A stretch of 19,538 nt of DNA from Thermoplasmatota archaeon (GTDB lineage: Archaea > Thermoplasmatota > Penumbrarchaeia > Penumbrarchaeales > Penumbrarchaeaceae). The stretch's first letter is position 1. Each line of letters begins with the position of its first letter. Below are positions 1 to 18,148 of the stretch, piece after piece. The translations under genes were made by a program, and so were the position numbers. The DNA is taken from assembly GCA_965234725.1 (NCBI GenBank), contig CBDDUX010000089.1, forward strand, positions 1 through 19,538, read 5' to 3'. The notes under the pieces are model-generated. The model searched no databases and had not been told where the DNA came from. It saw only the letters and a list, made by a program, of their open reading frames with translations.

Positions 1-125
1 CATAAATAAAAGTTAACGACGGGCACATTTTTTATTTAACTGTCAAAGCTAGGTTTCAATAAATGTCCTTGACCACTTCCAGGCAAGGCCAGGAAGCAGT
101 CCATGACAGGTAGATATCCTCTTAC

Positions 126-140
126 TTTATATATATAAAA
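126..140 (-). promoter_or_regulatory. Archaeal TATA box for a leftward transcript
   Basis: Minus strand reads TTTTATATATATAAA, about 20-30 nt upstream of a structured region at 40-109. A possible minus-strand ATG lies at 3..1. Confidence 0.5.
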
Positions 141-219
141 ATTAGAACCAAATTTGAACTATTACTTAAACCTGCTCGGTAACCCACCTATCAGGGTCCA
201 TCCGAACGATCAACTTTTA

Positions 220-1368
220 TCATCTGCGTGAGGTCATTTTTAACGTCAGCACCGCAAGGAAGAGGAATCCCACGGCGAACAAAACCAGCATCATGAGGTC
301 GAACCAAATATCGAAAACACCCCATCCTCTGAGAAGGACCGACCTCAGACCATCGACAGCATAGGTCACAGGGACGAAATAGGAGACCGGTCTCAGCCAG
401 GAAGGCATTGCTTCTATGGGCCAGAATACGCCTGATAGAAGGAATCCAGGCAGTACAATCAAAGGAAAGAACTGAATCGCCTGTGATTCCCTTTTCGCAA
501 GTGATGAGAGAAGTATACCTAGACAAACACTGACCACAGCCAGTATGGATGCGATAAGGAATGCAAGAAGTGGATTGCCTTCCACCATTATTCCGAATAC
601 AAGTATAGCCAGGACCATTAGAATACCAACCTGGACCATACCTATGATGCTGAAGGAGATCGCATACCCCACAACGATCTCTCCCTCCGTAACAGAGCTT
701 GCAAGGAGCCTTTGGAGGGTTCCCCGGGTCCTCTCCCCAACGAACGATATCAGTGTAAGGATAGTTGTAAGAAGGAATACAACGAATCCCATTATCCCGG
801 GGACGAACATGTCCAAGAACCTAGCCCCTTTTCCGTAGATGGGATCGGATGTGTCGACCTTTACAGGATTTTGGAATCCATTGCTTTCCGTGGTCTTCGC
901 CATGGCTTCCATTACCTCCGAGATCACTTCTTGTGAGATCGTCACCTGGCTCTGGTCGGACCTTACAATAATGGATGATGTCTGGCCTGTCATCTCCCCC
1001 TTGGAGAATGAAAGAAGGTCAATTGTGAAGTTCTCAGGGAATATTATAACCGAATTCGCGTTCCCTTTTTCAACCTCTTTTACTGCATAGTCCATATCTG
1101 TGGACTGTTTGATTATCAACTTGTCCTTATCAATGTTCTCAACGACCATATCGGAAAGGGTAACAGTAACATTTGATCCGGGTAGGTTCCCACCCTGATC
1201 AAGGTTCACGATGATCACATCAACATCTTCCACCTCTCCACTGAAGGCCATGCCGAAAATGAACATGGCCATGATGGGTGCGATTATGATCAGGGCAAGG
1301 CTTCGCCTGTCGTGTTTCAACGACCAGAATAATTTACGGGAAACTATCAATGTCCTTCTTATTTTCAT
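220..1368 (-). CDS. ABC-2 type exporter permease (YbhS/YhhJ-like)
   Basis: N-terminal TM, extracellular domain (VNLDQG...AVKEVEKG...IIFPENF), C-terminal TMs with GERTRGTLQRLLAS and LSGVFWPIEAMPSWL motifs. Overlaps the upstream ATPase stop. Confidence 0.93.
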   Translation of the reverse strand: MKIRRTLIVSRKLFWSLKHDRRSLALIIIAPIMAMFIFGMAFSGEVEDVDVIIVNLDQGGNLPGSNVTVTLSDMVVENIDKDKLIIKQSTDMDYAVKEVEKGNANSVIIFPENFTIDLLSFSKGEMTGQTSSIIVRSDQSQVTISQEVISEVMEAMAKTTESNGFQNPVKVDTSDPIYGKGARFLDMFVPGIMGFVVFLLTTILTLISFVGERTRGTLQRLLASSVTEGEIVVGYAISFSIIGMVQVGILMVLAILVFGIMVEGNPLLAFLIASILAVVSVCLGILLSSLAKRESQAIQFFPLIVLPGFLLSGVFWPIEAMPSWLRPVSYFVPVTYAVDGLRSVLLRGWGVFDIWFDLMMLVLFAVGFLFLAVLTLKMTSRR

Positions 1369-2090
1369 CAGGCCTTGCCCCCTTGAACGATCTTCATGAA
1401 CGCATCTTCCAGGTTCTCCATACCGGTCCTTTTCATGATTTCCGAGGGAGTTCCTTCGGCTATCAGCCTGCCCTCTCTCATCAACCCCACAAGGTCGCAG
1501 TTCCTGGCCTCATCCATATAATGCGTTGACATGATTATGGTCACCCCCTTCTTCTTCAGACCGTGAAACGTCTTCCAGAAACTTGCCCTGAGCGGTGGGT
1601 CCACTCCAACGGTAGGTTCGTCCAGGAATAGAAGTTCCGGTTCATGGATCATTGAAGCCGCAAGAGAGACCCTGTGCCTTTGACCTCCGCTCAGGTCCGA
1701 AAGGGGGAAATCCCTCCTTTTAAAGAGGTCAACCATGTCAAGGACCTCTTTCTCTCTTCTGATGAACCGTTCTTTTGACAGACCGTATATCCCCCCAAAG
1801 AGCTTCAGGTTGTCATGAACCGTCAGGTCTTCATATAGGGCAGTTTCCTGGGGCATGTATCCGATCCTTGTAAGGTACGACCGGTCCTTGATATCTTTAC
1901 CAAGAACACTGGCAGATCCTGCGTCCGGTTTCAATAAACCGCAGAGGACCTTGATCGTGGTCGTCTTCCCAGACCCATTGGGCCCCAACAACCCGAAAAC
2001 CGTTCCTTTTGGAACAGAAAGGTCCAATCCGTCGATCGCTATGACCTTTCCATAATGTTTCTTGAGTCCATTGACCTTAACAGCATCCAT
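1368..2090 (-). CDS. ABC exporter ATP-binding protein (CcmA/DrrA-like)
   Basis: Walker A GPNGSGKTT, signature LSGGQ, Walker B LFLDEPT, H-loop STHYMDEA. Confidence 0.96.
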   Translation of the reverse strand: MDAVKVNGLKKHYGKVIAIDGLDLSVPKGTVFGLLGPNGSGKTTTIKVLCGLLKPDAGSASVLGKDIKDRSYLTRIGYMPQETALYEDLTVHDNLKLFGGIYGLSKERFIRREKEVLDMVDLFKRRDFPLSDLSGGQRHRVSLAASMIHEPELLFLDEPTVGVDPPLRASFWKTFHGLKKKGVTIIMSTHYMDEARNCDLVGLMREGRLIAEGTPSEIMKRTGMENLEDAFMKIVQGGKA

Positions 2091-2684
2091 TTAATTTTCC
2101 CCCCTCTTTAATACACCATTCAAAAAGATCGATATGGCTTCCTTCAGCCTTCTATCATCCACTTCATGGAACGGATCGGCTCCCATCATCATGGCCATCA
2201 TCTCGCTCCTGATCAAATATGATGCAAGGAACACCCCTGCGGTCTCAATGTCAATATCACAACGTACCCTGTCATTCAGTATCGAATCCAATCTATCGAG
2301 CAGGAATCCTTTCATTAACCCGGGCATCTCGCTTACCTTCTCCCTGACGATATCATTGTTCATGATCTCCCGGTACATGATAGCGTATACACGCTCTCTG
2401 GCCCTGAGATTGCTCCTAATGGAAGATAGTAAGGAGAAGATGTCTTTCTCCAGATTTCCTGTCACTTCCATGGAAACCGATCCCCTCAATCCTTCAATGT
2501 CGAATCCATGGTCGAGGGATTCCGCAAGAAGGTTCTCCTTTGATGAGAAGTTGCGGAAAAGTGTTATTTCGTTAACACCGGCATTATTGGCTATCTCTCG
2601 TGTAGTTGTGGCCTTGAAACCGTTCCGTGAGAAGAGGTCCAGTGATGTTTCGAGTATCTTCTTCTGGGTTTCTGTCCTTTCCAT
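2091..2684 (-). CDS. TetR/AcrR family transcriptional regulator
   Basis: KILETSLDLFSRNGFKATTTREIANNAGVNEITLFRNFSSKENL is a TetR HTH. Start placed at ATG 2684 after a GGTG RBS. Confidence 0.93.
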   Translation of the reverse strand: MERTETQKKILETSLDLFSRNGFKATTTREIANNAGVNEITLFRNFSSKENLLAESLDHGFDIEGLRGSVSMEVTGNLEKDIFSLLSSIRSNLRARERVYAIMYREIMNNDIVREKVSEMPGLMKGFLLDRLDSILNDRVRCDIDIETAGVFLASYLIRSEMMAMMMGADPFHEVDDRRLKEAISIFLNGVLKRGEN

Positions 2685-2698
2685 GTGAACACCTATCA

Positions 2699-2743
2699 AT
2701 GCAAGTAATCACTTACATGCACAAGTGATATTTATCTCTTGTG
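2699..2743. promoter_or_regulatory. Two palindromes at the tetR promoter, likely TetR operators
   Basis: ATGCAAGT-AATC-ACTTACAT (2699-2718) and CACAAGTGATA-TT-TATCTCTTGTG (2720-2743). The second overlaps a TATA-like ATAAATA on the minus strand. Confidence 0.6.
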
Positions 2744-2754
2744 ATTATCTCAAT

Positions 2755-3021
2755 TTTTCCTACTTCGTTGAATACATCCCGGTTGCAGAAGGGTCCGAAT
2801 GTGAGGCCCCGATACAGGAACAGAGAGAAATGACCGTCCCGATCACGAAGGACCTGGAAAAAAGGTTCCCTGGAATATTCATCGCGTTTCCAGGGGATGA
2901 GGAGATATTTTGGGGATGTCTTTCCTCGGGAAGAGGATTCGTTCATATCAATCCCCAGGGAGAGTTGGAACCCTGTCCATTCACCCCATATTCGAATACA
3001 AGCTTGAAGGATGATGCCTAA
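2755..3021 (+). pseudogene. Radical SAM/SPASM-domain protein, internal fragment
   Basis: YFVEYIP...FIAFPGDEE..GCLSSGRGFVHINPQGELEPCPFTPYS matches the SPASM/twitch region of PqqE/SkfB-like radical SAM proteins. No CxxxCxxC N-terminal domain is present. Confidence 0.8.
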
Positions 3022-3059
3022 TTTTCTATTTAGGAAAATAAATTGGATCGAGAGTTGGA

Positions 3060-3119
3060 TATGAAAAAGTAACGAATATTTTATATAGTTATTTATTATA
3101 TTTTCATACTAAGATGAAA
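3060..3119 (+). promoter_or_regulatory. BRE/TATA promoter with inverted repeats, probably leaderless
   Basis: AACGAA followed by TTTATATA (3080-3087), about 27 nt before ATG 3114. TATGAAAA (3060-3067) pairs with TTTTCATA (3101-3108), and TTTCAT-N6-ATGAAA spans 3102-3119. Confidence 0.6.
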
Positions 3120-3968
3120 TGGACATTGAATGGAACTGAAATAGATACACTAAAATTTCTTGTTGACCAAGACAAAGGAGTGTGTATCTCGGCTGTCTCC
3201 AAAGAAATAGATATCTCTCTTCCATGGGCATCGGAATGTGTATCCCACATGAACGAACTGGGATTGATAGATACTTTTAGGAAAGGGAACAGGACGTATG
3301 TGACAATAGCGAAGAACGACCTGGGGTCCACATTCAAGAAGCTGGCGATCGAGAACAGGAATTTGAACTTGAAAAGGACACTTGGGGGATCCTCATTATC
3401 GATACTTCCGTATTTACTTGAGAATGGAATAAAGATGAAAGATGTTTCGAGATGGTCCTCGCTTTCCTACAGGACAGTAATGGACCACATGAACAGATGG
3501 AATAGGATGGGAATTGCCTACCGGAATGAAAGTGGATTTTGTAAGATCAATCCGAGGATGAGGGACCTCATTACATTCCTGGACCGTTTCAAAGAACATA
3601 GAGATAGAGCATTACTCGAAGAGATCTCACCGGGAGCAGTGATCATGTGGCAAAGGTGGGAAGAGGTCCTCTTCTCAAGCAATGTACCGATCGAACAGGA
3701 CCATATCTATCTTGCAGGTCCTACAAGACTTTCAACAATGGGATTTGACATCAATGCTGGAAGGAATTATTTCATGTTCAGCAGAAGGTTGGATTCAATA
3801 TCGGTAGAGGAGGCCATTGTCCAGTCAATACTTATAGATCCGGTCAACCCCCGTCCAATTAGTATTTTTAAGAAAGCCATGGCTTCCAATGAATTGAACA
3901 GGAAGATCATTCTTGGACTTGCAGAGAAGTACGGGATGGAGATTGATCTGGAAAAGATGGTGGTTTGA
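3114..3968 (+). CDS. Tandem winged-helix (MarR/ArsR-like) DNA-binding protein, putative antitoxin/regulator
   Basis: First HTH is ISAVSKEIDISLPWASECVSHMNELGLI plus wing; second is MKDVSRWSSLSYRTVMDHMNRWNRMGI. C-terminal domain follows. Abuts the nucleotidyltransferase gene. Confidence 0.8.
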   Translation: MKWTLNGTEIDTLKFLVDQDKGVCISAVSKEIDISLPWASECVSHMNELGLIDTFRKGNRTYVTIAKNDLGSTFKKLAIENRNLNLKRTLGGSSLSILPYLLENGIKMKDVSRWSSLSYRTVMDHMNRWNRMGIAYRNESGFCKINPRMRDLITFLDRFKEHRDRALLEEISPGAVIMWQRWEEVLFSSNVPIEQDHIYLAGPTRLSTMGFDINAGRNYFMFSRRLDSISVEEAIVQSILIDPVNPRPISIFKKAMASNELNRKIILGLAEKYGMEIDLEKMVV

Positions 3969-4781
3969 TTGGCCGAGGTGGGAAAGTTCCAAAATGATCA
4001 CTTAATTCAAAAATTGGAAGATATATCTGAATTACTTGATCGACCTGTAAGTGCATATCTCATCGGTGGTCTGGCGATGGGAACCTATGGATTGAAGGAG
4101 ACCACAAAGGATGTTGACCTTGTTTTCAAAACCACCAATGACGCTGAAACATTTATTAGGACAATTAGAAAGAGCGGGTATCTACGTAAGAATATCTTGG
4201 ATGACATATATTCGAACTTGGGAGCAGATGGTATTTTCACATCCAAATCGGGCCATAGCTTCGATATCTTCATTAAACAGGTTTGCAGGGGATTATCCCT
4301 TACCGATGGGATTATCAGAAGGTCTAATTTCTTTTCTATAGAAGGAAAACTGGACCTGCACACAGCATCACCGGAAGATATCTTTCTTTTTAAAGGGATA
4401 ACACCAAGACCACAAGACCTTGATGACATGTTCATATTGCTCCAAAGGGACCTGAATTGGGATATTATTCTGGATGAGATAAACGAGCAACCCGATCACT
4501 TTCGCTGGATCGGGGACCTATTCATGAGAACAGGTGAACTTGAAGAGAAATTCAATGTAAGCATACCATTTAGGAACGAAATAGCCGAAGAGGCCGAATT
4601 ATCCATTGTAATATGCTCAATACTTGAGATACTATCAACCAGAATCCTTTCCCTGGAAGAACTCCAAGTTATTGTTGAAGAAAATGAGGTCGAGATGACC
4701 GAAAAAGCAGTTGAAAGACTTATTGGGATGGGTAGAGTAGAAGTGAAGGAAGGATACATTTCCATGATAACTGATCGATGA
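3969..4781 (+). CDS. DUF6036/AbiEii-like nucleotidyltransferase (Pol-beta superfamily) with C-terminal wHTH
   Basis: YLIGGLAM...TTKDVDLV (GG and DxD motifs), DIF, and SPEDIFLFK...RPQDLDD. TTG start directly after the upstream TGA with a GATGGTGG RBS. Confidence 0.82.
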   Translation: MAEVGKFQNDHLIQKLEDISELLDRPVSAYLIGGLAMGTYGLKETTKDVDLVFKTTNDAETFIRTIRKSGYLRKNILDDIYSNLGADGIFTSKSGHSFDIFIKQVCRGLSLTDGIIRRSNFFSIEGKLDLHTASPEDIFLFKGITPRPQDLDDMFILLQRDLNWDIILDEINEQPDHFRWIGDLFMRTGELEEKFNVSIPFRNEIAEEAELSIVICSILEILSTRILSLEELQVIVEENEVEMTEKAVERLIGMGRVEVKEGYISMITDR

Positions 4782-4810
4782 TGTTGAATGAATGAAATCC
4801 ACCTTAATAA

Positions 4811-4945
4811 GAACCCCTCACGGGATCCGGACTGCTGAAGGATATAAGGGAGAACCACCACATGCTTGAGGAGACCTCCGGTGGTTGTGCTCTTTGGAGG
4901 AATCGGACGTGGATCCAGGGATCGATGAAAGATAATTCAAATTAG
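4811..4945 (+). pseudogene. C-terminal fragment of the same radical SAM protein
   Basis: My translation is EPLTGSGLLKDIRENHHMLEETSGGCALWRNRTWIQGSMKDNSN*. IRENH...GGCALW.NR.W is, from memory, the C-terminus following EPCPF.PYS in this family. Confidence 0.7.
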
Positions 4946-4965
4946 TTATTTTGAAATAACTAATT
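4940..4965. repeat. Perfect 12-bp inverted repeat between convergent genes
   Basis: AATTAGTTATTT-TG-AAATAACTAATT. Confidence 0.75.
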
Positions 4966-5008
4966 AAAATATTTTCTCACATTTTTCATTAATTATATAA
5001 AATGAATA

Positions 5009-5986
5009 TTATCTTCTCTTTCTGTAAATTATAAAAACAATAAAACTGCCAAGGAGTAATATTGGGATCAGAATCGTTATGAAACAGCAAACATCCTCCA
5101 GCCATTTACCTTCGGTCACATCCACCTCCTCATCAACACCATCATAGACAATGTATGTGTCCTCCTTCCACCAGTCCTCCAGATGGATATCGACGATGAG
5201 GTTCCCCTCTCCATCCTCAGATCTCTTCAGATCGAATCCTTCTGGAGGGGTGTGATAACCAGAACCGGAGGTAGATATCCATTCTCTTCCCACAATGACC
5301 CTGATATTCGGAGAGTTGAAATTATCATGATGTGAATGAAACTTCAACCGGAAACTGTCAATGGGTTCGGGCCAAGAGCTATTAGAGAATACGAGGTAAG
5401 AATTGCCCCAGTCAGTTATCTTGGTCTTGTAGTATTCATCATAACCAAATGGTATAGGGTTAGGACCCATTGAAGATTCTTCATATTGGATCACATAGGG
5501 ATCGGTACTCCAGGTAACATTCATGATCACTGATGAATTTCCACCTACACTTACATTCAGGGTCTTGACGGGATATGGTTCCTCGTTGAAATACCATAAA
5601 AACGATCTATCCTCTTCGATCCACCGATAGTAATCATCCTCCAGATAGATCTCATTCAAAAAAACCTCCGCCCCGTCAAGTTCGATCCTGCAGTTATCGG
5701 CATAATAACTCGGATCGAAGAATATGCTCAGGTCCTCTGTTTCATTTCCGGGATTGAAAAACATGTAGTATCCTTTCCCATCGGCCCTATCCTCGTAGAG
5801 ATCAATGCTGATATTTACTTCTTTGAGAAAGGTCATGTGGTCATCGGATTCAAGGATGCCTTGAGAGCTAACGAGATTGTTATCGGAAATTATAGAAAAA
5901 TTTCCCGAGACCATAGGAACAAAGAGAAATGAAATTACCAGCCAGAAGGCCATACCACCGATCCGTCGAAATCCTCTTCTCGACAT
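5009..5986 (-). CDS. Exported, C-terminally membrane-anchored hypothetical protein (N-terminus weakly DUF4424-like)
   Basis: Signal peptide MSRRGFRR...VPMVSG, acidic/aromatic beta-rich body, C-terminal TM and YRKRR tail. Start placed at 5986 after GAGG; 5995 is the alternative. Confidence 0.75.
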   Translation of the reverse strand: MSRRGFRRIGGMAFWLVISFLFVPMVSGNFSIISDNNLVSSQGILESDDHMTFLKEVNISIDLYEDRADGKGYYMFFNPGNETEDLSIFFDPSYYADNCRIELDGAEVFLNEIYLEDDYYRWIEEDRSFLWYFNEEPYPVKTLNVSVGGNSSVIMNVTWSTDPYVIQYEESSMGPNPIPFGYDEYYKTKITDWGNSYLVFSNSSWPEPIDSFRLKFHSHHDNFNSPNIRVIVGREWISTSGSGYHTPPEGFDLKRSEDGEGNLIVDIHLEDWWKEDTYIVYDGVDEEVDVTEGKWLEDVCCFITILIPILLLGSFIVFIIYRKRR

Positions 5987-6070
5987 AATCCTCATTCATC
6001 TATTATCACTTCACTATTTAACCCGACCCTCTACATGTAGTAAAATCATGAATTCAAATCGATTTCCTGC

Positions 6071-6736
6071 CTACAATTTCTCAGTAACAAAGGCCCAGCA
6101 GTAATACTTCTCATCGTTTTCCGGATCAATGGATCCGACAAATAACAGCCATGCGATCTTCTTTAATCCAACCTCACCAAGGACCTTCTCAACATGCTCC
6201 CTTCCGTGATGGACAACGTCCCTACCCCATCTCGTGTGATGCATCGTAGGACCTCCAACAGGTCCTCCGTTGCTGTCAGCCATAACAGTAAATGTGAATT
6301 TTCCCCCGGTTTTCAGGATCCTTCCAACCTCCTCAAAGATGCCTCTGATATCCTTGAAGAAATGGAGGACCCCAACAGAAATGACATGGTCGTAAGCTCC
6401 ATCTCCGTAAGGATACGGGACCTCGGTCATATCGTGAACAATCAGGTCCCTGGTAATATCCTTCCTCCTGCACTGGTCCAACATCGATTCGGAAAGGTCC
6501 ATACCGTCTATGGTCACTCCAAGGTCCTTGAACCGATACGAACCCAGGCCTGTCCCAATTCCAATATCGAGCATGACCTGCCCCTTCTTAATATTAGAAT
6601 AGAGAAGTCCGAATACAGCATCATCTCCGAAACACTGGAAATTCTCAGTCATGGAATCGTAATCAACAGAGAAGTCCTCATCATCCATACAGAGGGATCG
6701 GTCCAACAATTGATAATCCTTATCCTGCAGGTTCAT
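6071..6736 (-). CDS. Class I SAM-dependent methyltransferase
   Basis: MLDIGIGTG motif I, GMDLSESML, YDHVISVGVLHF, RILKTGGKF. ATGA overlap with the ATPase. Confidence 0.92.
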   Translation of the reverse strand: MNLQDKDYQLLDRSLCMDDEDFSVDYDSMTENFQCFGDDAVFGLLYSNIKKGQVMLDIGIGTGLGSYRFKDLGVTIDGMDLSESMLDQCRRKDITRDLIVHDMTEVPYPYGDGAYDHVISVGVLHFFKDIRGIFEEVGRILKTGGKFTFTVMADSNGGPVGGPTMHHTRWGRDVVHHGREHVEKVLGEVGLKKIAWLLFVGSIDPENDEKYYCWAFVTEKL

Positions 6737-7497
6737 CTCCGGGACATTGGAATGAACACTTTCTCCCTGCCCTCACCGAGGACCTTGGCTTTGATATCAT
6801 AAACCTCTTCAAGGACCTTTCTGGAAAGTGCTTCCGAATCCCCTTTTGCCACGACCTTTCCGGCTTTCAAAAGAACGAACCGATCACAGTATCTTAGAGC
6901 TAGGTTCAGGTCGTGGACGGCCATTACTGCAAGTATTCCCTTGCCTGTCTGCTTCTTGATAAGCTCCATGACATCTATCTGGTTTGCAAGATCAAGGGAA
7001 GATGTCGGTTCATCCAATAATAGAACATCTGGTTCCTGGGCAACGGCCCTGGCTATGATCACCTTCTGCCTTTGGCCTCCGGATAACGAGTTCAGATCAC
7101 GTGTGGATAACTCCTCAAGATCGAACTCCTTCAATACCTCTGAAACAATGTCCAGATCCTTCCCGATCGGGGCCCAGGAACCATGGGGGATCCTTCCCAT
7201 AAGGACCGTTTCAAAAACAGTCTTTGGAAAGAGGTTCATTGATGATTGTGGAACATATCCGATCCTCCGTGCAGTTTCTCTCCTCTTCATAGAGGACAGG
7301 TCCCTGCCGTCTATGAGGACCTTCCCCTTTCCCGGCCGAAGGATCCTGTCCATGTTCTTCAGGAGAGTGGATTTCCCGGAACCGTTGGGACCGACAAGAC
7401 CTATCAGACTTCCACCCTCCATGTCAAGGTCTATACCGGAAAGGGCATAGGTCCCGTTGTAGGAGAAATGCAGGTCCTTGACCCTGAGGTTCACCAA
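6733..7497 (-). CDS. Metal-chelate ABC importer ATPase (FepC/BtuD-like)
   Basis: GPNGSGKST, YVPQ, LSGGQRQ, LLLDEPTSSLD, HDLNLA. Confidence 0.95.
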   Translation of the reverse strand: MVNLRVKDLHFSYNGTYALSGIDLDMEGGSLIGLVGPNGSGKSTLLKNMDRILRPGKGKVLIDGRDLSSMKRRETARRIGYVPQSSMNLFPKTVFETVLMGRIPHGSWAPIGKDLDIVSEVLKEFDLEELSTRDLNSLSGGQRQKVIIARAVAQEPDVLLLDEPTSSLDLANQIDVMELIKKQTGKGILAVMAVHDLNLALRYCDRFVLLKAGKVVAKGDSEALSRKVLEEVYDIKAKVLGEGREKVFIPMSRR

Positions 7498-8570
7498 TGT
7501 TCCTTCCCCCTTATGACAAGATAGATGAACAAGGGAGCTCCCAGGAAAGAGGTCAGTATACCCACCGGTAGAACAATGGGAGCAATCACGGTCCTGGCAA
7601 AGGTATCAGAGGCAAGGAGAAGAACAGCACCGAAAAGAGCCGAAGCCGGCATAAGGTATCTCTGGTCCGCACCTATGATCTTCCTGACGATATGTGGGAC
7701 TACCAATCCCACGAATCCGATTATTCCCACAAATGAGATGATGAATGCCGTTACAAGGGAGGCTGCGCCCATACCGACCAATCTGAGCCTTTCCGTGTTC
7801 AAACCGAGACTGCCCGCAGTCTCATCTCCCATATCCATGGCATTGTATCTCCACCCGTTGAATGAGAAATAGACCAATGCAGGGAAGACCACAACGACCA
7901 TGATCAGTATTTCATCCCAACCTGTTCTCCCCATATCACCGAAGGTCCAGAAGATGATAGAGGACAGCTGGACATCATCGGCGAAATATTCCATAGCGGT
8001 AGTCCCGGCTGTTGCAAGTGACCCCATTGCAACACCGGTAAGTATCATAGACTCAGGAGAGGCTCTCTTGAATCTTGCAAGAAGGACTATGACACCGGTC
8101 GATACCAGCGAAGCCGCAAAAGCGCAGATGGATATCAGGTAGATGTTGTCATTTACCACTGCATCGATCATTCCGCTGTGGATAGTACCGGCTCCAAGTA
8201 CGACGATCGCGAAAGCTGCGCCAAAAGCCGCAGCCTGTGATATTCCCAGAGTGACAGGTGAGCCGATAGGATTCCTGAGGACCGACTGCATTGCGGCTCC
8301 GGCTGCGGCAAGACCCGCACCTGCGATCATTGCGGTAACAACCCTCGGAAGCCTTATCCTCCAGATGATGGTCTCTGTGACATCATCACCCTGTCCGATA
8401 AGGCCCTTGAAAGATTCTGAAAGCGTCATATCGGAGGAGCCAACGCTCAAAGATATCAATACGAAAATAAATAGAAGGATCAAAGAAATAAGAAGGAATA
8501 ACCACTTTTTTAAGGCTCCCTTTCGATAGTCATCAAGGGGATCGGATGGATCCTTCTCCCCTTTTTTCAA
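7491..8570 (-). CDS. FecCD/BtuC family ABC permease
   Basis: IRLPRV, MQSVLRNP, GIIGFVGLVVPHIVR, LPVGILTSFLGAPLF. Confidence 0.95.
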   Translation of the reverse strand: MKKGEKDPSDPLDDYRKGALKKWLFLLISLILLFIFVLISLSVGSSDMTLSESFKGLIGQGDDVTETIIWRIRLPRVVTAMIAGAGLAAAGAAMQSVLRNPIGSPVTLGISQAAAFGAAFAIVVLGAGTIHSGMIDAVVNDNIYLISICAFAASLVSTGVIVLLARFKRASPESMILTGVAMGSLATAGTTAMEYFADDVQLSSIIFWTFGDMGRTGWDEILIMVVVVFPALVYFSFNGWRYNAMDMGDETAGSLGLNTERLRLVGMGAASLVTAFIISFVGIIGFVGLVVPHIVRKIIGADQRYLMPASALFGAVLLLASDTFARTVIAPIVLPVGILTSFLGAPLFIYLVIRGKEHW

Positions 8571-9631
8571 ATGGACAGCTCCTTGAAGCCACCGAACTCA
8601 TCGGCCATTTGCTGGTAGACACCCTCTCCGACAAGGAACCGGTATATCTCGTTCGTTTTCTCGATAGGATCCATACCCTCGAACTCATCCGGAAAAAGGA
8701 TGGACCCGATATAGTAGGCATCGCCGAGGACCGTTCCGTAATTTGTCGTATACCAGTTGTATGGAAGGACCCCGTAGATCCTTTCGTTCTCAACTGCATC
8801 CACCGTATCAAATGTCCCATCCGAAAGCTCGGTTTCAGCAATGGATAGACCTCCTTCGTCTATGAAGATCACTTCCGGGTCCCAGTCAAGGATCTTCTCC
8901 TTGTCAACGAAAGCATGTTCAATTCCCAGCGAGGATGCGACATTGTTCCCATTAACGAATTCCAAAGGAGAGTATGCGGGTTCAGTGGACAGCATTCCAT
9001 GGGACCCACGATAACCCACACCGCCGACATAGGCAGAGGTCCTGTTCGTCGGTCCGGTTGTAAGATCATCAAGCTCCTTGATCCTGTCTTCGAAGAATAT
9101 CTGGATATCTTCGGCTCTCCTTGGGTTCCCCATTACGGTCCCGATCAGATCCAATGCACCGAAGAAGTCTTCCAAGTTATTGTTGAGGTCCCCGTATTCC
9201 AGGGCGATCACCGGGATCTGTGTCTTTGACTCCAGATCGTCCGCCTTTGAGATATCCGTTGAGGTCCAGAATATCACATCAGGTTGAGCAGCAACAAGAA
9301 GCTCGGCATCACCGCCGTGGATCGGACCTATCGATGGAAGGTCCAATAGTTCTGGGTTAGCGAAGAGATATGGTTTGGCATTTCCACCCGCTCCATCTTG
9401 CTTCTCATTGTCCTCTATACCAACTACCTTTTCGGTATGCTGCATATAGACCAGTAGTCTGAGTGCACCGGCCTCGATGCCTACTATCCTGTCAACGGTC
9501 TCGGGGATCTCCACTTCCCTTCCCAGCATATCCGTGATCCTTACGGTTCCTTTGGCATCTTCTTCCAGACATCCACAGGATATAATCAAAGATGAGGAAA
9601 TCAACAAAATGATCAGGAGCCATACCTTCAT
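8567..9631 (-). CDS. TroA/BtuF-like metal-chelate substrate-binding lipoprotein
   Basis: MKVWLLII...ISCGCLEE lipobox, ITDMLGREVEIP, AAQPDVIF, WDPEVIFID, AVENERIY. The ORF-track start at 9703 overlaps fmdE, so 9631 is preferred. Confidence 0.92.
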   Translation of the reverse strand: MKVWLLIILLISSSLIISCGCLEEDAKGTVRITDMLGREVEIPETVDRIVGIEAGALRLLVYMQHTEKVVGIEDNEKQDGAGGNAKPYLFANPELLDLPSIGPIHGGDAELLVAAQPDVIFWTSTDISKADDLESKTQIPVIALEYGDLNNNLEDFFGALDLIGTVMGNPRRAEDIQIFFEDRIKELDDLTTGPTNRTSAYVGGVGYRGSHGMLSTEPAYSPLEFVNGNNVASSLGIEHAFVDKEKILDWDPEVIFIDEGGLSIAETELSDGTFDTVDAVENERIYGVLPYNWYTTNYGTVLGDAYYIGSILFPDEFEGMDPIEKTNEIYRFLVGEGVYQQMADEFGGFKELSI

Positions 9632-9635
9632 CCTC

Positions 9636-10283
9636 TCAACTCCTTTTCCGAGAGCATGGAAGGCAATATCTTTCCTTATTGATCTCAACGGCCCTATGTG
9701 CACCCACCTTTTCCCCGCAGTCAGGACATACGAACGATTCGAATATCCTGGCCTTTTCCGGGATCTCCTCCTTCACCTCCCTGATGGTGAAAAGGTCCTC
9801 CCCCATTTCCAGCACCATTGCAGCCCTTTTCAACCATTTGATCTGGAAATCATTCTTTTCATCAGGTGTAGCCTCGCCGGACCTTACTTTCGAGAAAAGT
9901 GACATAGCCTCCGGATCGTCTTCGTTTTGAGGGATGCCTTGAAATGAATATCTCCATCCTCTCCCTGACATCCTGTCAAAAAAGGTGTAAACTGACTTCC
10001 CATGGTCAAGAAAGATAAGATTACCCTTCCCGAAAGTGCATCCAAGAAGTGATTGGATCCCGTCCGCACCGCATGCATCATTCTCTACTACGGCGACTAG
10101 TTCCTCATCAGGAGACCTCTCTCTTCCATTCAGAAATGAAATAGAAGCGGACACTCCCATTGCAAGACCCGGACATATGTGTCCATGGAATCGAGCTGCC
10201 CGGGATAGAGCCTTAAGAAGGGGGCCAGATATACCGATCTGTTCTATCTGGATCAACTGATCTTCCAGTCCATTTGCTGACAT
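9636..10283 (-). CDS. fmdE: FmdE/FwdE-family protein with C-terminal zinc finger
   Basis: RFHGHICPGLAMG, VENDACGADGIQ, GCTFGKGNL and CPDCGE...CLPC. Start at ATG 10283, downstream of the promoter. Confidence 0.88.
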   Translation of the reverse strand: MSANGLEDQLIQIEQIGISGPLLKALSRAARFHGHICPGLAMGVSASISFLNGRERSPDEELVAVVENDACGADGIQSLLGCTFGKGNLIFLDHGKSVYTFFDRMSGRGWRYSFQGIPQNEDDPEAMSLFSKVRSGEATPDEKNDFQIKWLKRAAMVLEMGEDLFTIREVKEEIPEKARIFESFVCPDCGEKVGAHRAVEINKERYCLPCSRKRS

Positions 10284-10293
10284 GATCGACCCT

Positions 10294-10347
10294 CGTGCTA
10301 CTTTTTCCAAAAAAGTAGCACGGCCGGAATGTTCAGTTGATATATAT
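10294..10347 (-). promoter_or_regulatory. TATA box plus perfect 13-bp palindrome, NikR-like operator
   Basis: CGTGCTACTTTTT-CCA-AAAAAGTAGCACG (10294-10322) contains GTGCTA-N15-TAGCAC. ATATATAT lies at about 10340-10347. Confidence 0.7.
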
Positions 10348-10362
10348 CGGTTTTGAATCCCA

Positions 10363-12669
10363 TCAACCTGTAGTCCTTTCTCTGATAGTGGTCTCGATAT
10401 CCAGTTTCTTCGTATACCGGATCGGGAATATGGAGGACCCGAAAATGAATAAGAACCCAAAGGTGAAAGTCATGATCATTGCACTAATCGCAAATACCAC
10501 CGGGAAATAATACAGGATATCCTCCATTACAACTGCGAACAGTCTTCCAAACAGATATGCGAATGGCAAGCCCAGCAAAGCCGAAAAGAACCCGATGATC
10601 CCTATTTCTATGAGCATGGACCCTATGACCTTGCTCCTCGGAATTCCCAATGTCTCAAGGGTGGCGAATTCAATATCACGCTCCATTGTGGAGATAATTA
10701 TGGCCGATGCAGCAACAACCATTGCTATTATGAGGCAGATAACGAAGAAGAAGTATAGCATCCCCATGGCCGAACCGAATGTGTCATCCATGGCTTTGAT
10801 GATATCATCCTGTTTGGTGACCTTGGATACACCCTGGATCCCTTCCAGCTCGACCGCGATCCTATTGATATCTTCCTTGTTATTTAGTTTTATGAACGCT
10901 CCCTGTGCCAGGCTCTCATCTGCCAAGGGTGAAGCGGTATTTCGGTCCAGATATACAGCCTGCATCAGTATGTCATATACGATCCCGCCAATAGTGGTCT
11001 CCAATTCATTGGCCCCAACCATGATAGTTATCCTATCGCCTTTTGATACCCCAAGTTTGCTTGCGAGCTTGTTGGTGATGACGGATGATGATAGGTCCAT
11101 TTTTCCGGATTCAATTTGAAAATCCCTTGTTTCCAGAATCCTGTCTGATGCTACAACGTAGGTGTTTTCAGTATTCCCTCCTCCGGAGATCTGCCCCGCA
11201 AGGTATGCGAAAGGGATAACATATTCAGCTTCTTCAATCTCCAACATATTCGTAACATTATTTATGGGAAGAGGGTTGGTGAGATCGACCCTGAGGTCCC
11301 AGGTATCCTGGTTCACCTGGTCCTGCATATAACCCCAGGCCGAATCTGTCACCACGATCCATGATCCGGATATACCAATTGACATCCCAATAACGAAGAT
11401 GGTGATCGCGGTCCTTACCGGATTCCTGAAGGTGTTCCTTATCCCCATCAATCTTGTTTTTGAGATTCCCGAAAACGCCCTTCCAACCGTTAGTATCCTG
11501 GTCTTTGGTTTATGGTCCAGCGCCTCTCTGACAGATTGTCTTGTAATGACAAAGATCGGTATGCCGACAGAGATCAAAACGCTCCCGAAAGAGAAAACAA
11601 GCCCTGAGATAAATGGTATCGGAGCCAGGGGATAGGCAACTCTGATGTCACCGATCATGGTCATCGTATAGGACATGATCCCCATGGTGAACAGGAAGCT
11701 CAAAAAGATCCCCACAATTGACCCTATTGCTGCAAGGATCACACCGAAGCTGAGATATGCCCAGGTGATCTTCAACCTCGAATATCCAAGGGACATCATG
11801 ACCCCGATATACCTGGAATCGTTCATGACGATACGGTAGAATGTCATGAATATCGATATCATGCCTACCACCATGAAGATCACGGAGAAAAGGGGAAACA
11901 TGTTCCTCATCTTTGCCGCACCTATATTCATGAATACAACGCTTGGATGGTCCTCCTGAAATATTATCTCCGATACAGGAAGTGAACCCAGGGACCCAAC
12001 AACAGTATCTCTCATTCCCTTTTCAACTTTCAAAGGGATGTCATTCACTCCCAGTCCTGTGATGTCCTGTAATTCTCCCAGATCCATGTAAAGGACAACA
12101 AAATGTCCAGGCAAAGGCAGGGATGAATCCTGGACAGGAGATGCGAAGATATATTCCGCGGTTTGTACGGTTCCGGTGATCTTCACTTCGATATCGGTTC
12201 CGGTTGTGGTGAATGATGCCGATCCGTCATTCTTCGCACCGATATCCTCCATGCCGGCTACAACAACTCCCTCTCCCCTTTCAGTGAATAGATCGCCGTC
12301 CTTCAATAGAAGTTTGTTGATATCCTTCCTGGCAGGGTCCTCGATACCGATGATGACAGAGGGATAGTCCTTTCCATTGTAATGGTAGGTCCCGTCAAGC
12401 TTCAATCTGAGCAAATATGATGAGACACCGTCGATGCTGGAGATCGCTTGATCCGCATCCGTCATATTGACCGGTTCGGAAAGTGTCAGGAAGATATCGG
12501 GAAAATTTGTCTCCTTGATGTATGTATCCATGGAATGATCAAATATCAAGGCGGAATAGAGACCTGTAACGAACATTGCCATTGAGAGTGAGACCACCAT
12601 GGATATGGCAAGGACCCTCCACTTCATCCTGAAGAGTTTTCTTACCACGCTCTTTGTAATAGGTTTCAA
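10363..12669 (-). CDS. FtsX/MacB-family ABC permease with duplicated architecture
   Basis: Two repeats of TM, extracellular domain and FtsX TM block (RYIGVMMSLGYS; ERDIEFATLETLGI). TTG start with AGGTGGTGA RBS. Confidence 0.92.
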   Translation of the reverse strand: MKPITKSVVRKLFRMKWRVLAISMVVSLSMAMFVTGLYSALIFDHSMDTYIKETNFPDIFLTLSEPVNMTDADQAISSIDGVSSYLLRLKLDGTYHYNGKDYPSVIIGIEDPARKDINKLLLKDGDLFTERGEGVVVAGMEDIGAKNDGSASFTTTGTDIEVKITGTVQTAEYIFASPVQDSSLPLPGHFVVLYMDLGELQDITGLGVNDIPLKVEKGMRDTVVGSLGSLPVSEIIFQEDHPSVVFMNIGAAKMRNMFPLFSVIFMVVGMISIFMTFYRIVMNDSRYIGVMMSLGYSRLKITWAYLSFGVILAAIGSIVGIFLSFLFTMGIMSYTMTMIGDIRVAYPLAPIPFISGLVFSFGSVLISVGIPIFVITRQSVREALDHKPKTRILTVGRAFSGISKTRLMGIRNTFRNPVRTAITIFVIGMSIGISGSWIVVTDSAWGYMQDQVNQDTWDLRVDLTNPLPINNVTNMLEIEEAEYVIPFAYLAGQISGGGNTENTYVVASDRILETRDFQIESGKMDLSSSVITNKLASKLGVSKGDRITIMVGANELETTIGGIVYDILMQAVYLDRNTASPLADESLAQGAFIKLNNKEDINRIAVELEGIQGVSKVTKQDDIIKAMDDTFGSAMGMLYFFFVICLIIAMVVAASAIIISTMERDIEFATLETLGIPRSKVIGSMLIEIGIIGFFSALLGLPFAYLFGRLFAVVMEDILYYFPVVFAISAMIMTFTFGFLFIFGSSIFPIRYTKKLDIETTIRERTTG

Positions 12670-12680
12670 GATCTCACCAC

Positions 12681-13358
12681 CTATGAACCCTCATTTAGCT
12701 TTCCGTGTCTAAGGACAAGTGTTCGGTCCATGTACTTCTTCAATCTTGTATTGTGAGAAACGATAAGGAAGGTCATACCAAGCTGGTTCTGAAGTTCCTT
12801 CATGATTTTCATGATGGATTCCTCCCTATCCTCATCAAGATTTCCAGTAGGTTCGTCCGCAAGGATCAGAACGGGTTCTTTGGCCAGTGCTCTGGCAATT
12901 GCGACCCTCTGCTGTTCCCCGCCTGACATTTCCTGAGGGTAGTTCCGGGCCTTATCGGCTAGTCCCACCATATCAAGATATTTCAAGGCCCTTTTCCTCA
13001 TCTCTTTCCTTGAAGTGGATAGGTTCTCGAGTCCAAGTTCAACGTTCTCAATTGCAGTAAGTGTTGGTATAAGATTGTAGAATTGGAAGATGAAACCGAC
13101 ACGTTCCCTTCTGAACTTGTTGAGGTCCTTCTTTCCAAGTTTGGGAAGTTCCAGACCATCCACCATAAGGATCCCTGAATCGGGGCCATCTATCCCACCG
13201 AGGAGGTTGAGCAGAGTTGTCTTTCCACTTCCGGAAGGCCCCATGACCATGATCATCTCCCCCTTCTTTAAATTGAGGTCAGTTCCTTTGAGGACGTTGG
13301 TGGTCTCACCACCAGTAACGTAGCTCTTGTTCAGGTTCCTGATGTCCACGAGTGTCAT
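12681..13358 (-). CDS. LolD/MacB-type ABC ATP-binding protein
   Basis: [46 protein letters not shown]. Confidence 0.95.
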
Positions 13359-13426
13359 TGTATCACTTCTCAATAAGGTCTATACAGTATGTAGTAAATA
13401 TCACTCCTGCCGTACATGCGGGGTTC

Positions 13427-13439
13427 TTTATATAATTCG
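13427..13439. promoter_or_regulatory. TATA box in divergent intergenic region
   Basis: TTTATATAA is usable on both strands, with CGAA (BRE-like) upstream on the minus strand. It lies about 21-29 nt before ATG 13456. Confidence 0.55.
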
Positions 13440-13455
13440 AAAATAATTCGTTATC

Positions 13456-14109
13456 ATGAGGAAGGCAATTATCCAGCTGAAACCGAACATACTGGTCAGA
13501 CAGATGCAGAAAGGGATCTACGATTCTGTTCTGAGGATCGAAGGACGAGAACTCCTGAAACTGGATTTCGAAAGGACCACCAAAATGGTAATTACAGACC
13601 TGATATTGAAACCAGGTCATGATCTGGATGATGTGAAATTCCCAAGAGGTGTCGAGATCCTGAATGTGTTGAAGGTAGATGGAGATAGATACACCGTATT
13701 AATGAGTGCAAAGGCTCCAGGAAAGAAATTCAGCGGATTATTCAAGATGTTCGATCTCAATGTGATCTATGATGTCCCTTTCAGTGCAACCTCCGATATG
13801 ATAATCTTCAGCGCAATAGGTGAAAATGAACCATTGAACAAATTGATCAAGCTGCTGAAAATTTTAGGTGAAGTGGAGAAGCTAAGTTTCACCCAGGCTA
13901 CTTTTTCAGAACATGATATCCTGAAGATATTGACTGACAAACAACGAGACATTCTTTTAGAGGCGAAGAAGAGAGGTTATTACGAATATCCGAGAAGGAT
14001 CAATACACAGGAGCTTTCGGAAAGATTGGGAATAAGCAAAGCAACCACGGTAGAACACTTGAGAAAAGCGGAGATCAGATTGATGAGCAATTTGCTCGTA
14101 GGATATTAA
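13456..14109 (+). CDS. Bat-type HTH_10 transcriptional regulator
   Basis: C-terminal LTDKQRDILLEAKKRGYYEYPRRINTQELSERLGISKATTVEHLRKAE. Confidence 0.93.
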   Translation: MRKAIIQLKPNILVRQMQKGIYDSVLRIEGRELLKLDFERTTKMVITDLILKPGHDLDDVKFPRGVEILNVLKVDGDRYTVLMSAKAPGKKFSGLFKMFDLNVIYDVPFSATSDMIIFSAIGENEPLNKLIKLLKILGEVEKLSFTQATFSEHDILKILTDKQRDILLEAKKRGYYEYPRRINTQELSERLGISKATTVEHLRKAEIRLMSNLLVGY

Positions 14110-14111
14110 CA

Positions 14112-17100: not shown

Positions 17101-17513
17101 ATGAGTTCTTCCTCCATGCAATGTTTATTGGAAATATCACTTGCAATGGTCATTACTGCTGGTTCACCAAGATATTCAATAATAACGGACCTGGCCTCTG
17201 TATATATGATCTTTCCATCCGCTCTGATATTCATCTGTTCTATGCTATCCAATTCACCGTTGTCCAATAATTTCTTCCTTCTTCTCTTTGCGAATTTTTC
17301 ATTTTCCGGATGGATAAAATCCAAAACGGATCTACCAACCAGTTCCTTGGGATCATTTATTCCAAGTAGTTCCGCTGCAGCTGGATTGGCCTCCATTATC
17401 TTCATATCCCTATGGATAATGATCGCTTCGGAGGAAACCTTCATTAGGACCTTGAAATTGCTTGGAATCTCTTTTTCTTCAATCCCTTTACGCACTGTTG
17501 GAACCCTTTTCAT
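14112..17513 (-). CDS. Cytoplasmic multi-PAS sensor histidine kinase (about 7 PAS/PAC domains)
   Basis: Seven PAS modules ending in DIT/DVT/DIS, H-box LLGHDIGN, N-box NLMHNGIKF, DHGFGI and GIGLSLV. No TM seen. Start placed at 17513 after GGTG; 17600 is the alternative. Confidence 0.93.
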   Translation of the reverse strand: MKRVPTVRKGIEEKEIPSNFKVLMKVSSEAIIIHRDMKIMEANPAAAELLGINDPKELVGRSVLDFIHPENEKFAKRRRKKLLDNGELDSIEQMNIRADGKIIYTEARSVIIEYLGEPAVMTIASDISNKHCMEEELIESRELYRGLMEEAGTGIGIWSEDGKLIRLNEIASERMGGRSEEFEGKTFQDLFGMANGKVYLDRLKKAIKSKKPLRFEDNMEFSEGERFFTSYLNAIKDKDGKVMAVQIISNDITDRKKMEMDIKESEGRFRRLAENAKDIIYRLKIPDGYFEYISPSIKDIVGYSQDEVYKDVSLMRHAIHPDFYKWFLDVWIGLLHGEVLDSFEYKIISKDGNEKWLNQRNTIVKDKEGNPIALEGIVTDVTENIEANLSIKQNEEKFRTLYENMVQGVFYQSKDGRLIDCNKRTLEIFGLTEDQIMGRTSMDPRWKVLDKYGNELSGEKHPSVLALSTGEPQLGIELGVFNPIKDDIVWININAIPQFRNGEKSPYQVFVTIEDISDKKNVLNALTENEEKYRTLFENILNGFALHKIIRDDDGTPVDYRFIEVNHAFELMTGLKSEMIVGKLVSEVIPGIKADPVAWIKRYGKVAIQGIEERFEDYSSDLEKWYSVLCYSPKKEYFATLIEDITPRKLMELEMQNSQNFLENLIRTANTIILTLGPDGSILTFNAYAEKITGYRREEVIGKNWMNLFIPEEERSAINEVFHDVLIGKHLHINQENPILTKKGELKYISWANTIQRDKEGNVETILTIGTDVTDKRRSQRELLRSQILLFETLNNLTDSVSVINQDMVLEFVNSSFRVLLKKAGIKEDPLGKNLMTLQPYLPDKVRDEYQRVFKKKEVIQTQEEIRIDDIEFVTQTIKIPLIIYGRIEKVITVMRDITKEKESERNILEERKRSEFYLDLLGHDIGNLHQGIYTGFQLARRASDPKVKEMGLDSTEELIKRSVKLVKNVLLLSRLGAKEPELERLDLRKIIRSSIEHVRLMFPGKDVDLKEDLGKGKLEIMAEPIVEELFLNLMHNGIKFQEGKVPKMEIGIKKNKNEVTVIVSDHGFGIKDPEKERLFGRFTPRGRGSKTGIGLSLVKVLTDRYGGEIDVRNRVDGDYGKGTKFLIKFPLA

Positions 17514-18060: not shown

Positions 18061-18148
18061 ATTTTCATACTCCTCGATTTACTTGATCGTTTATGGATCA
18101 TGGATATTAAAAAAGGTCCCTAATAAATTCAGAGACTTCAATGAAAAT

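Follow-up and report, generated by a model that had tools for sequence, protein, structure and literature searches.

A winged-helix and nucleotidyltransferase gene pair inserted in a radical SAM gene of a Thermoplasmatota archaeon, and its relatives across the archaea

In AbiE systems, the partner of the transferase carries an N-terminal winged helix and autoregulates, and integron cassettes are discrete gene units that often carry toxin-antitoxin (TA) pairs. The MenT/AbiEii toxins, whose genes follow those of varied antitoxins, attach nucleotides to the 3' ends of tRNAs, and DUF1814 proteins are said to occur in archaea too (available part of PMC7450476). In the HEPN-MNT modules the transferase is the antitoxin and the HEPN RNase the toxin (available part of PMC7641770), and comparable insertions, with a few repeated boundary bases of uncertain meaning, have been described for restriction-modification units (available part of PMC4615327). 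Here we describe a two-gene cassette in contig CBDDUX010000089.1 (positions 1 to 19,538, forward strand; GenBank assembly GCA_965234725.1) of a Thermoplasmatota archaeon of the Penumbrarchaeaceae from sediment; this whole stretch of 19,538 nucleotides is hereafter the window. The cassette encodes a winged-helix protein, H, followed by a DUF6036-family nucleotidyltransferase, N, and lies within a broken radical SAM/SPASM gene. The explanation that we consider best as a whole, with about an even chance of being right throughout, is a single old insertion of a foreign cassette carrying a TA-like pair, by illegitimate recombination.

The insert was delimited by comparison with two genomes of the same genus, G003 and G004, whose stretches corresponding to this locus of the window genome (G000) are designated L013 and L014, respectively. 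The insert is about 1.79 kb long and is not present in the empty sites of these two genomes, where synteny is full on both sides. When the window is compared with G004 by blastn, positions 2001-2744 correspond to L014 8176-8919 (89% identity), 2763-3012 to L014 9675-9925 (86%) and 4830-5600 to L014 9953-10724 (91.6%), and 1817 nt of the window stand against 27 nt of G004; the three blocks show that the window departs from the empty state by two lesions, the insertion and a deletion considered below with the host gene. The orthologue in G003 (L013:9382-10464) is intact and 361 aa long. Window positions 2725-3018 match its residues 233-316 (68 of 84 identical, 81%) and positions 4811-4942 its residues 325-360 (28 of 36, 78%), leaving 8 reference residues unaccounted for at the join, without a large gap or overlap. 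An earlier reading, made from the letters of the window and its open reading frames (ORFs) and called here the sequence-only reading, had proposed that a promoter and two genes were acquired as a discrete unit inside one radical SAM gene, that the joined fragments would align contiguously and that relatives would hold an empty site. All of this is borne out, the fragments being parts of one orthologue and the empty sites supporting the arrival of a discrete unit in a pre-existing gene, and the insertion itself we hold to be very nearly certain.

The insert consists of an AT-rich promoter and two abutting ORFs on one strand (Table 1), its limits lying 92 nt before the first start codon and 20 nt after the last stop codon. 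In the ORF list the left part of the host gene appears as a 98-aa frame at 2725-3021, ending ...PCPFTPYSNTSLKDDA*, and the second open stretch, at 4811-4945, begins EPLTGSGLLKDIRENHHMLEETSGGCALWRNRTW...; the G+C content is 0.34-0.37 over 2851-3300, about 0.40-0.46 through both cassette genes and 0.44-0.51 in the flanks. The arrangement resembles the restriction-modification and TA gene units that become inserted with no transposase (mobile units of the Kobayashi type), which are likewise selfish two-gene units, are missing from the orthologous sites of siblings, lack a recombinase gene and show a few repeated boundary bases. It differs from them in gene family, in domain of life and in lying inside a coding sequence, and it is because of the broken reading frame that its limits can be read.

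At the empty site the G004 sequence reads ...GATATGAGCCTTAAAGAGGCC..., whereas the left junction of the window reads ...GATGATGCCTAAT up to the boundary and TTTCT... beyond it, and the right junction ...AAATCCA up to the boundary and CCTTAATAAGAACCCC... beyond it. Each flank extends into the lone CCTTAA of G004, an arrangement that, read from the bases, would be left either by a target duplication of 6 nt or by a crossover inside a microhomology of that length. The junction repeat is imperfect, its longest exact run being 4 nt, and 7.1% of random pairs of 14-nt windows set 1786 nt apart in the same genome match as well; it is weak alone and draws weight only from its position, at the point where the two flanks come together on the one CCTTAA of the empty site. 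The CCT(T)AAT motif that the sequence-only reading had seen at both junctions is thus present in two copies at the empty-site CCTTAA, but as an imperfect repeat of little weight by itself. That reading had also allowed for a one-base frameshift on each side, and the ancestral-site reconstructions that were tried likewise require at least a one-base change per side. With imperfect copies, a diverged empty site and this chance level, the limits are therefore known to about +/-3 nt, in support of the earlier claim of closely defined boundaries.

Neither ORF of the insert matches a transposase or integrase family in the Pfam, PADLOC and NCBIfam scans, apart from one sub-threshold NCBIfam row for H (IS630 transposase, E 0.017, 14.6 bits against a cut-off of 100), which covers the helix-turn-helix only. 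No recombinase was found among the eight larger ORFs scanned over 8567-18527; the ORFs at 220-2090 and 6733-8570 were left out of that scan, their translations being read as ABC-transporter components. None of the 25 longest inverted repeats listed (75 were found) has arms at 3019-3023 and 4801-4808. These scans and the inverted-repeat search agree with the earlier description of the insert as a promoter and two genes only, without transposase, integrase or terminal inverted repeats. A 20-nt AT-rich inverted repeat at 3075-3094/4954-4973 was considered as a pair of element ends and rejected, one arm being the cassette promoter and the other ancestral intergenic DNA that is found in G004, G001 and G003. 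Miniature inverted-repeat transposable elements (MITEs) and other non-autonomous elements share with the insert a short flanking direct repeat and the lack of an internal transposase, and are unlike it in that the insert has no terminal inverted repeats, occurs as a single copy, carries 1.8 kb of coding cargo and belongs to no family of related ends. It is also unlike an integron cassette, as it brings its own promoter and has only 20 nt from stop codon to junction. The attC sites of integrons are longer than 20 nt and have a GTTRRRY-type core, and no such core is visible at the insert boundaries by reading of the sequence, no attC model having been run.

The structure is supported by reads assembled independently of the published genome. 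In the run that contains 97% of the sampled words, possibly the source sample (X1, assembled by Logan), one contig corresponding to positions 2000-3223 runs across the deletion scar and the left junction and another, corresponding to 4450-5015, across the right junction, both with 0 differences, and the word depth is even (2539, 2762, 2902 and 2520). In a run of another study (X3), a 151-nt contig covering 2932-3080 bridges the left junction with 22 differences in 149 positions (about 85% identity); runs X2 and X4 yielded parts of the insert only and no junction. As the junctions are crossed by independent contigs, misassembly, which had been named as a possible refutation, is excluded as far as contigs show, and the insertion is not recent, because it is common to a diverged relative. 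A chimera could be suspected in a metagenome-assembled genome (MAG) of 114 contigs, but the difference-free X1 contigs over both junctions and the scar, their equal depth and the X3 contig over the left junction leave that explanation next to no credibility. Other X3 contigs, over the cassette and downstream of it, are 96-99% identical to the window, against the 22 differences in 149 positions of the junction contig, a contrast that could reflect either faster decay of the pseudogene remnant or a mixture of strains. Among the related contigs the cassette genes show 17 differences, 8 synonymous and 9 non-synonymous, which is a small sample, and the only indel listed, at 4965, lies outside the two genes, a picture of genes that are being kept.

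Table 1. Features of the insert and its surroundings, in window coordinates (L014 is the corresponding stretch of G004; a dot marks a feature without strand).
Feature	Position	Strand	Basis or remark
TetR-family regulator, conserved left neighbour	2091..2699	-	Pfam TetR_N, E 3.5e-14; syntenic with G003 and G004
Deletion scar, 18 nt	2745..2762	+	window 2744 = L014 8919; window 2763 = L014 9675
Radical SAM/SPASM remnant A, residues 233-316, TAA at junction	2763..3021	+	81% aa identity over 84 aa; 86% nt identity to G004
Left junction repeat CCTAAT	3017..3022	.	unchanged in the X3 contig
37-nt insert stretch upstream of the promoter block, with small imperfect palindrome TTTTCTA..TAGGAAAA	3023..3059	+	no relative anywhere, no other copy in the genome
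Palindromic predicted operator (I9) around archaeal TATA box TTTATATA (3080-3087)	3060..3108	+	arms 3060-3078/3090-3108, 79% complementary
H, 284 aa, two winged helices (about 7-65 and 94-145) and C-terminal alpha/beta domain of HVO_2833_C type; proposed repressor/antitoxin	3114..3968	+	Pfam, PADLOC, AF2
N, 270 aa, DUF6036-family nucleotidyltransferase (1-200) and C-terminal winged helix (206-268); proposed toxin	3969..4781	+	Pfam, alignment, AF2
20-nt 3' tail of the insert	4782..4801	+	nothing conserved 3' of the stop codon among cassettes
Right junction repeat CCTTAAT	4802..4808	.	aligns to the single CCTTAA of G004 (L014 9931-9936)
Radical SAM/SPASM remnant B, residues 325-360 and stop codon	4811..4945	+	78% identity over 36 aa; inside the 91.6% G004 block
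AT-rich ancestral palindrome (I1), outside the insert, between convergent radical SAM and 328-aa membrane-protein genes	4926..4979	.	also in G001 and G003

The host gene is a pseudogene with two lesions, the cassette insertion and a 5' deletion. The deletion begins a little way 5' of the start codon and reaches to about codon 232, so that some 705-755 bp are gone and 18 nt stand in their place; the radical SAM domain region, as placed in the intact orthologue, went with the start codon and the first ~232 codons. The sequence-only reading was right that the gene is interrupted and overlooked this 5' loss. The 18-nt scar (set against L014 8920-9674) is in part similar to the bases immediately preceding the start codon in G004. 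At this locus the gene encodes 361-376 aa in genomes of the same genus, and an 88-aa radical SAM fragment used as a query has matches in 21 of 41 related genomes, mostly inside open frames of 360-390 aa. The G003 protein is a radical SAM/SPASM-like protein of unassigned function, nearest to AhbD/NirJ models, though it misses the equivalog cut-off by far (TIGR04545, NCBIfam, 90.5 bits against 500). The window, G003 and G004 share a neighbourhood of ABC-2 permease, ABC ATPase, TetR regulator on the minus strand and radical SAM gene on the plus strand. Directly 3' of the radical SAM gene, G004 has the 328-aa membrane-protein gene and a methyltransferase, whereas in G003 two other genes (350 and 401 aa) precede the methyltransferase; both genomes continue with an iron-siderophore-type ABC transporter. 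With the fragment query, neither G001 (95% complete) nor G002 (68% complete) gives a match; beside the TetR gene, G001 has BirA-like, BioY-like and MazF-like genes, by reading of the translations, and G002 a 436-aa gene. The host gene thus looks dispensable and the locus variable within the genus. In G004 itself (L014 8986-11815), frame breaks split the radical SAM gene, the 328-aa membrane protein (into 231 and 114 aa) and the methyltransferase; with several G004 genes broken in this way, the breaks are possibly indel errors of the assembly rather than marks of true pseudogenes.

The pair was then followed in a survey of 61 related genomes and in a wide scan of one genome per species, from which 80 loci, picked through N, were kept. 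Among the related genomes 15 have a relative of N and 14 a relative of H, and H precedes N on one strand in 10 further places. In the wide scan H lies directly upstream of N in 74 of the 74 loci with room for it, of which 73 pass the upstream-H test and the other, L092, fails only because stop-to-stop frames overlap; 6 more loci lie at contig ends, and both genes are full-length in 70 of the loci with room. The 80 loci span Thermoplasmata, Methanomassiliicoccales, Methanosarcinales, Bathyarchaeia, Nitrososphaerota, Micrarchaeota, Woesearchaeota, Nanohaloarchaeota, Hydrothermarchaeota and haloarchaea, and 79 of their titles are archaeal, the remaining one (L097) being a Spirochaetia bacterium MAG. 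The H-N pair is a fixed module and is widespread across archaea. When it decays, N is the partner that goes, an asymmetry like that of a toxin: N is gone in G005, reduced to its last ~40 residues in Nitrosotenuis G086 and interrupted by an in-frame stop in G011, each time beside a full-length H. In L139, N lacks its first 47 residues, and in G030:C77 both genes are breaking up. No full N beside a broken H was found among the loci with room, in a set that had been picked through N. At L138 318-1967, one open frame of 550 codons is hit by the profiles of both H (E 4.3e-09) and N (E 8.8e-56), and may be a fused pair or a read-through of a lost stop codon.

The contexts of the pair vary widely. 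Only 4 of 137 immediate neighbours at the 80 loci are recombinase-like (a tyrosine recombinase, an IS110 transposase, a TnpB and an InsA-type zinc ribbon); others are phage portal/terminase, Fic/DOC, MNT-type transferases (3 loci), restriction-modification genes and AAA_14-DUF4143 ATPases, and many are housekeeping genes, the pair of L100 lying between DAHP synthase and dehydroquinate synthase. G003 and G004 each hold an H-N pair elsewhere, between a 291-aa radical SAM gene and a hydrogenase maturation protease, which constitutes a second variable island (L053 6400-9300; L054 5600-11700). Identity between these two pairs amounts to only 26% for H and 33.5% for N, and genes for PIN and VapB-like proteins adjoin the one in G004. 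The G000 assembly breaks at this island (C34:43215-43455; C52:26900-28326), with a PIN fragment at one end and a 223-aa ORF at the other. The company and patchy distribution of the pair are those of TA and defence genes, and the context survey indicates that the H-N family in general moves as the two genes alone, as the sequence-only reading had suspected from a single case. The cassettes of G036 and G034 are alike over 1.7 kb (70% identity), up to the cassette limits and no further, and lie in different contexts with no empty site. At L055 (G001:C50, a whole contig of 5056 nt) and L019 (G019:C9), in different genera, 3.3 kb with the H-N pair are 98.3% identical, through either recent transfer or the mis-binning of a short contig; as a boundary-defining pair they were set aside, the overlap falling wholly within short contigs and no boundary being readable.

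Larger units also occur. In Nitrosotenuis G063 (L099 2743-6332), 3.6 kb with H, N and a gene for a 320-aa protein that belongs to no known family sit between a methylmalonyl-CoA epimerase gene and a 429-aa gene, where G071, G087 and G070 have 165-710 nt (e.g., L163 3082-3246). In three haloarchaeal genera (L103, L117 and L130, positions 28-3012 in each) the same 995-aa ORF, without a Pfam match, lies directly upstream of the pair, which seems to ride there in a larger shared island; in L117 an Eco57I-type restriction-modification gene follows the pair. The cassette in the window might accordingly be what is left of a larger element, such as a provirus, plasmid or island, that was inserted and later trimmed by deletions down to an addictive pair. 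The haloarchaeal island, the portal/terminase neighbours and the extra gene of the Nitrosotenuis insert provide parallels for such a larger unit, and the 5' deletion shows deletions to be active at the locus. Trimming would, however, need two deletions, one stopping no more than 40 nt and the other no more than 20 nt from the cassette and both sparing the outer repeat, and the 37-nt and 20-nt remainders resemble neither each other nor anything in the genome, which makes us consider this history improbable.

A single integration of the bare cassette is the history that we prefer. In a Thermoplasmatales-type genome, a dispensable AhbD/NirJ-like radical SAM/SPASM gene within a variable stretch would, on a single occasion some while back, have received in its 3' part a 1.79-kb cassette from another archaeon, by illegitimate recombination or end-joining at a microhomology of 5-7 nt (CCTTAA) and without a dedicated transposase. 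This route is in keeping with the small indels that adjoin the two junctions, and one event with a repeat of 5-7 nt fits ordinary illegitimate recombination at least as well as dedicated mobilisation; we put this route forward tentatively, as possible at slightly under an even chance. Three things weigh against it. Seven tyrosine recombinases are encoded elsewhere in G000, a 6-nt duplication is also what a transposase leaves, and the ancestral bases are uncertain, because the nearest empty site is only 86-91% identical. The Nitrosotenuis locus, tried as a second base-exact pair of filled and empty sites, could not add to the case, its intergenic junctions being too diverged to read.

The cassette might instead be a non-autonomous transposable element, moved with a 6-nt stagger by a transposase encoded elsewhere, CCTTAA being its target-site duplication. 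In agreement with this, CCT(T)AA stands on both flanks and once in the empty site, the boundaries are tight around the two genes, and the family occurs in many unrelated contexts without an adjacent recombinase. A mobile element of this kind is nevertheless made improbable by the imperfection and chance level of the repeat, by the lack of terminal inverted repeats and by several comparisons. No second copy of the insert was found in G000 (97.65% complete), where the only DNA match is the window itself, and elsewhere in that genome the best matches to the insert ends are 14 nt long. The homologous cassettes share the promoter/operator and the genes and nothing beyond, the homology with the G003 and G004 cassettes starting at ~3060-3066 and ending with the second gene's stop codon. 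Beside 72 other cassettes CCT(T)AA shows no enrichment, occurring upstream in 3, downstream in 8 and on both sides in 0, against a background of 8.8%, and no target motif recurs. Finally, the Y1 transposase of IS200/IS605 elements (PF01797) has 0 matches in G000, the control being positive in 6 of 14 genomes. A candidate string resembling GAATGAATG, which lies 3' of the cassettes in the window and in G004, was dropped because only 2 of 10 cassettes have it. With a single copy, unique ends, no conserved flanks and an unenriched motif, neither this case nor the family survey supports the suggestion that the module was mobilised in trans or by an unrecognised mechanism, and the same results speak against a site-specific system with a CCTTAA core. 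The flank comparison proposed along with it shows neither conserved ends nor a shared target motif.

The pair might even be a minimal self-mobilising element, with H as its sequence-specific binder and N acting on DNA ends, the two proteins promoting its capture at short TTAA-like sites. This would explain bare two-gene units within genes and between housekeeping genes in many archaeal phyla without a recombinase, and we regard it as highly improbable all the same. Returning to illegitimate recombination, the case by itself reveals no new way of moving DNA and is one old event of a familiar kind.

As regards function, the start codon of N is a TTG that directly abuts the stop codon of H (3968/3969), and N is translationally coupled to H. 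By itself N is a weak match to Pfam DUF6036 (PF19502, 21.0 bits against a cut-off of 23.6), but DUF6036 is matched by 43 of 45 relatives at E <=0.01 (best 1.1e-09) and DUF2204 by 9 of 45. Consistent with this weak membership, a PF19502 search of G000 returned 0 proteins at threshold, and it was not used as evidence of absence. A database search collected 121 relatives of N, with Thermoplasmata, Methanobacteriota, Methanospirareceae and Micrarchaeota as named sources, many of them ~202 aa long and without the C-terminal winged helix. In the alignment of 45 sequences the Pol-beta motifs I and II are intact, G33, G34, D48 and D50 being invariant and D99 at least 90% conserved. A further block, K142, R147, D150, D153 and E170, is also invariant there, its residue-by-residue equivalence with MenT3 not being readable; motifs III and IV of MenT3 are K189 and D211 (available part of PMC7450476). 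The AF2 model of N has a pLDDT of 92.6, and for residues 5-195 the best structural match is MenT1 (8an5_A; Z 13.6, root-mean-square deviation 3.6, 174 of 194 residues), followed by MenT4 (Z 11.4), ANT(2'')-Ia (10.8), MenT3/TglT (~10.6), TM1012 (10.4) and LnuA (10.3).

The partner H was aligned from loci, as a word-indexed protein search gave only 2 proteins. Pfam, PADLOC and NCBIfam see only its winged-helix domains, at ~5-65 and 93-150, whereas the AF2 model (13 sequences, pLDDT 91.5) has two winged helices and a C-terminal alpha/beta domain. For the latter, HVO_2833_C (PF24271) is matched by 3 of 13 members of the H family (best E 8.3e-13) and receives an Atlas score of 0.90 with 176 shared features. 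Structure searches with H give lists taken up by ArsR/MarR-type proteins that match the first winged helix (Z up to 12.1). A prediction of the H-N complex scored 0.00 against a mark of 0.32 and has no bearing either way.

Upstream of H, the TATA box TTTATATA lies ~27 nt before the ATG and the start codon 5 nt past the right arm of the palindrome. The block is kept in 8 cassettes with the consensus ATGAAATAATAnCGAA, 13-15 nt that include the TATA box, and TTCGGTATTATTTCAT, the start codon following a few bases on, although their H proteins are only 20-50% identical. Across these 8 cassettes the 16-nt arms are complementary in 79.7% of cells, against 41-55% when the partner arm is slid by 1-3 columns; 0 of 500 shuffles reach the observed complementarity, and 9 of 16 positions have changes on both sides. 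From its conservation and symmetry, the inverted repeat looks like the predicted operator of a dimeric repressor.

Taken with the structural matches of N, its repeated loss beside an intact H, the company and patchiness of the pair and the retention of both genes in related contigs, these observations make it probable, on the analogy of the known systems, that the cassette is an autoregulated TA module of the AbiE/MenAT kind. A dimer of H would bind the operator and repress the operon; N would be a toxin like MenT/AbiEii that nucleotidylates a cellular target, by analogy tRNA 3' ends; H would keep N harmless; and the two together would form an addictive TA or defence-type module that persists once acquired. 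The resemblance to MenAT/AbiE consists in a transferase of Pol-beta fold (~200-290 aa) encoded directly downstream of its partner, in the ranking of MenT1, MenT4 and MenT3 as best matches and in Pol-beta motifs I and II, beyond which N has a conserved K...R...D..D block. On the other hand, N belongs to the DUF6036/DUF2204 Pfam families and has its own C-terminal winged helix, and H has two winged helices and HVO_2833_C, no AbiEi or MenA family being detected. Like HEPN-MNT, the pair is a small two-gene archaeal module with a Pol-beta-fold transferase; unlike it, it has no HEPN partner, and the transferase is the partner that is lost.

Several results count against the TA reading. Antibiotic nucleotidyltransferases follow MenT1 at a distance of ~3 Z units (ANT(2'')-Ia 10.8, LnuA 10.3). 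The AbiEii/DUF1814 Pfam family is not matched by N at E <=0.1 or by any of the 45 relatives at E <=0.01, and neither a PADLOC defence model of the AbiEii/DUF1814 kind nor any NCBIfam model matches N. No AbiEi Pfam match was obtained for H or its family; AbiEi is not among the structure matches of H, whose lists are filled by winged helices, and the AbiEi_2 cluster appears in the Atlas only at 0.80, below lead level. In the window the inner right half of the operator is degenerate, with TTTA where the consensus has TTCG. The literature searched held no paper on DUF6036, nothing related by title on DUF2204 and none on HVO_2833.

The pair could therefore be something other than a TA module, namely a regulator with a nucleotidyltransferase that acts on a small molecule or antibiotic, as ANT(2'') and Lnu do, or has a housekeeping role in RNA or DNA metabolism, and that spreads because it is useful. 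Such a role would suit the scores of ANT(2'')-Ia, TM1012 and LnuA, which are little below those of the MenT proteins, the lack of a match between N and any defence or TA model, and the many housekeeping genes among the neighbours. Against it stand the repeated loss of N with H intact, the strict coupling to a large DNA-binding partner at all 74 loci with room, top structural matches that are MenT toxins over nearly the whole catalytic domain, and a patchy occurrence within one genus with TA genes for company, and we think it rather unlikely.

The locus provides a clean natural example of a bare two-gene unit entering an archaeal chromosome, with filled and empty sites and limits known within a few bases. 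Of more use than the single case is the family to which it belongs, an uncharacterised pair that is widespread in archaea and combines a MenT-like transferase with a conserved predicted operator; no paper on it was found in the literature searched. If the predicted toxicity is true, the nucleotidyltransferase toxin systems would gain an archaeal branch, and archaeal genetics a compact autoregulated module.

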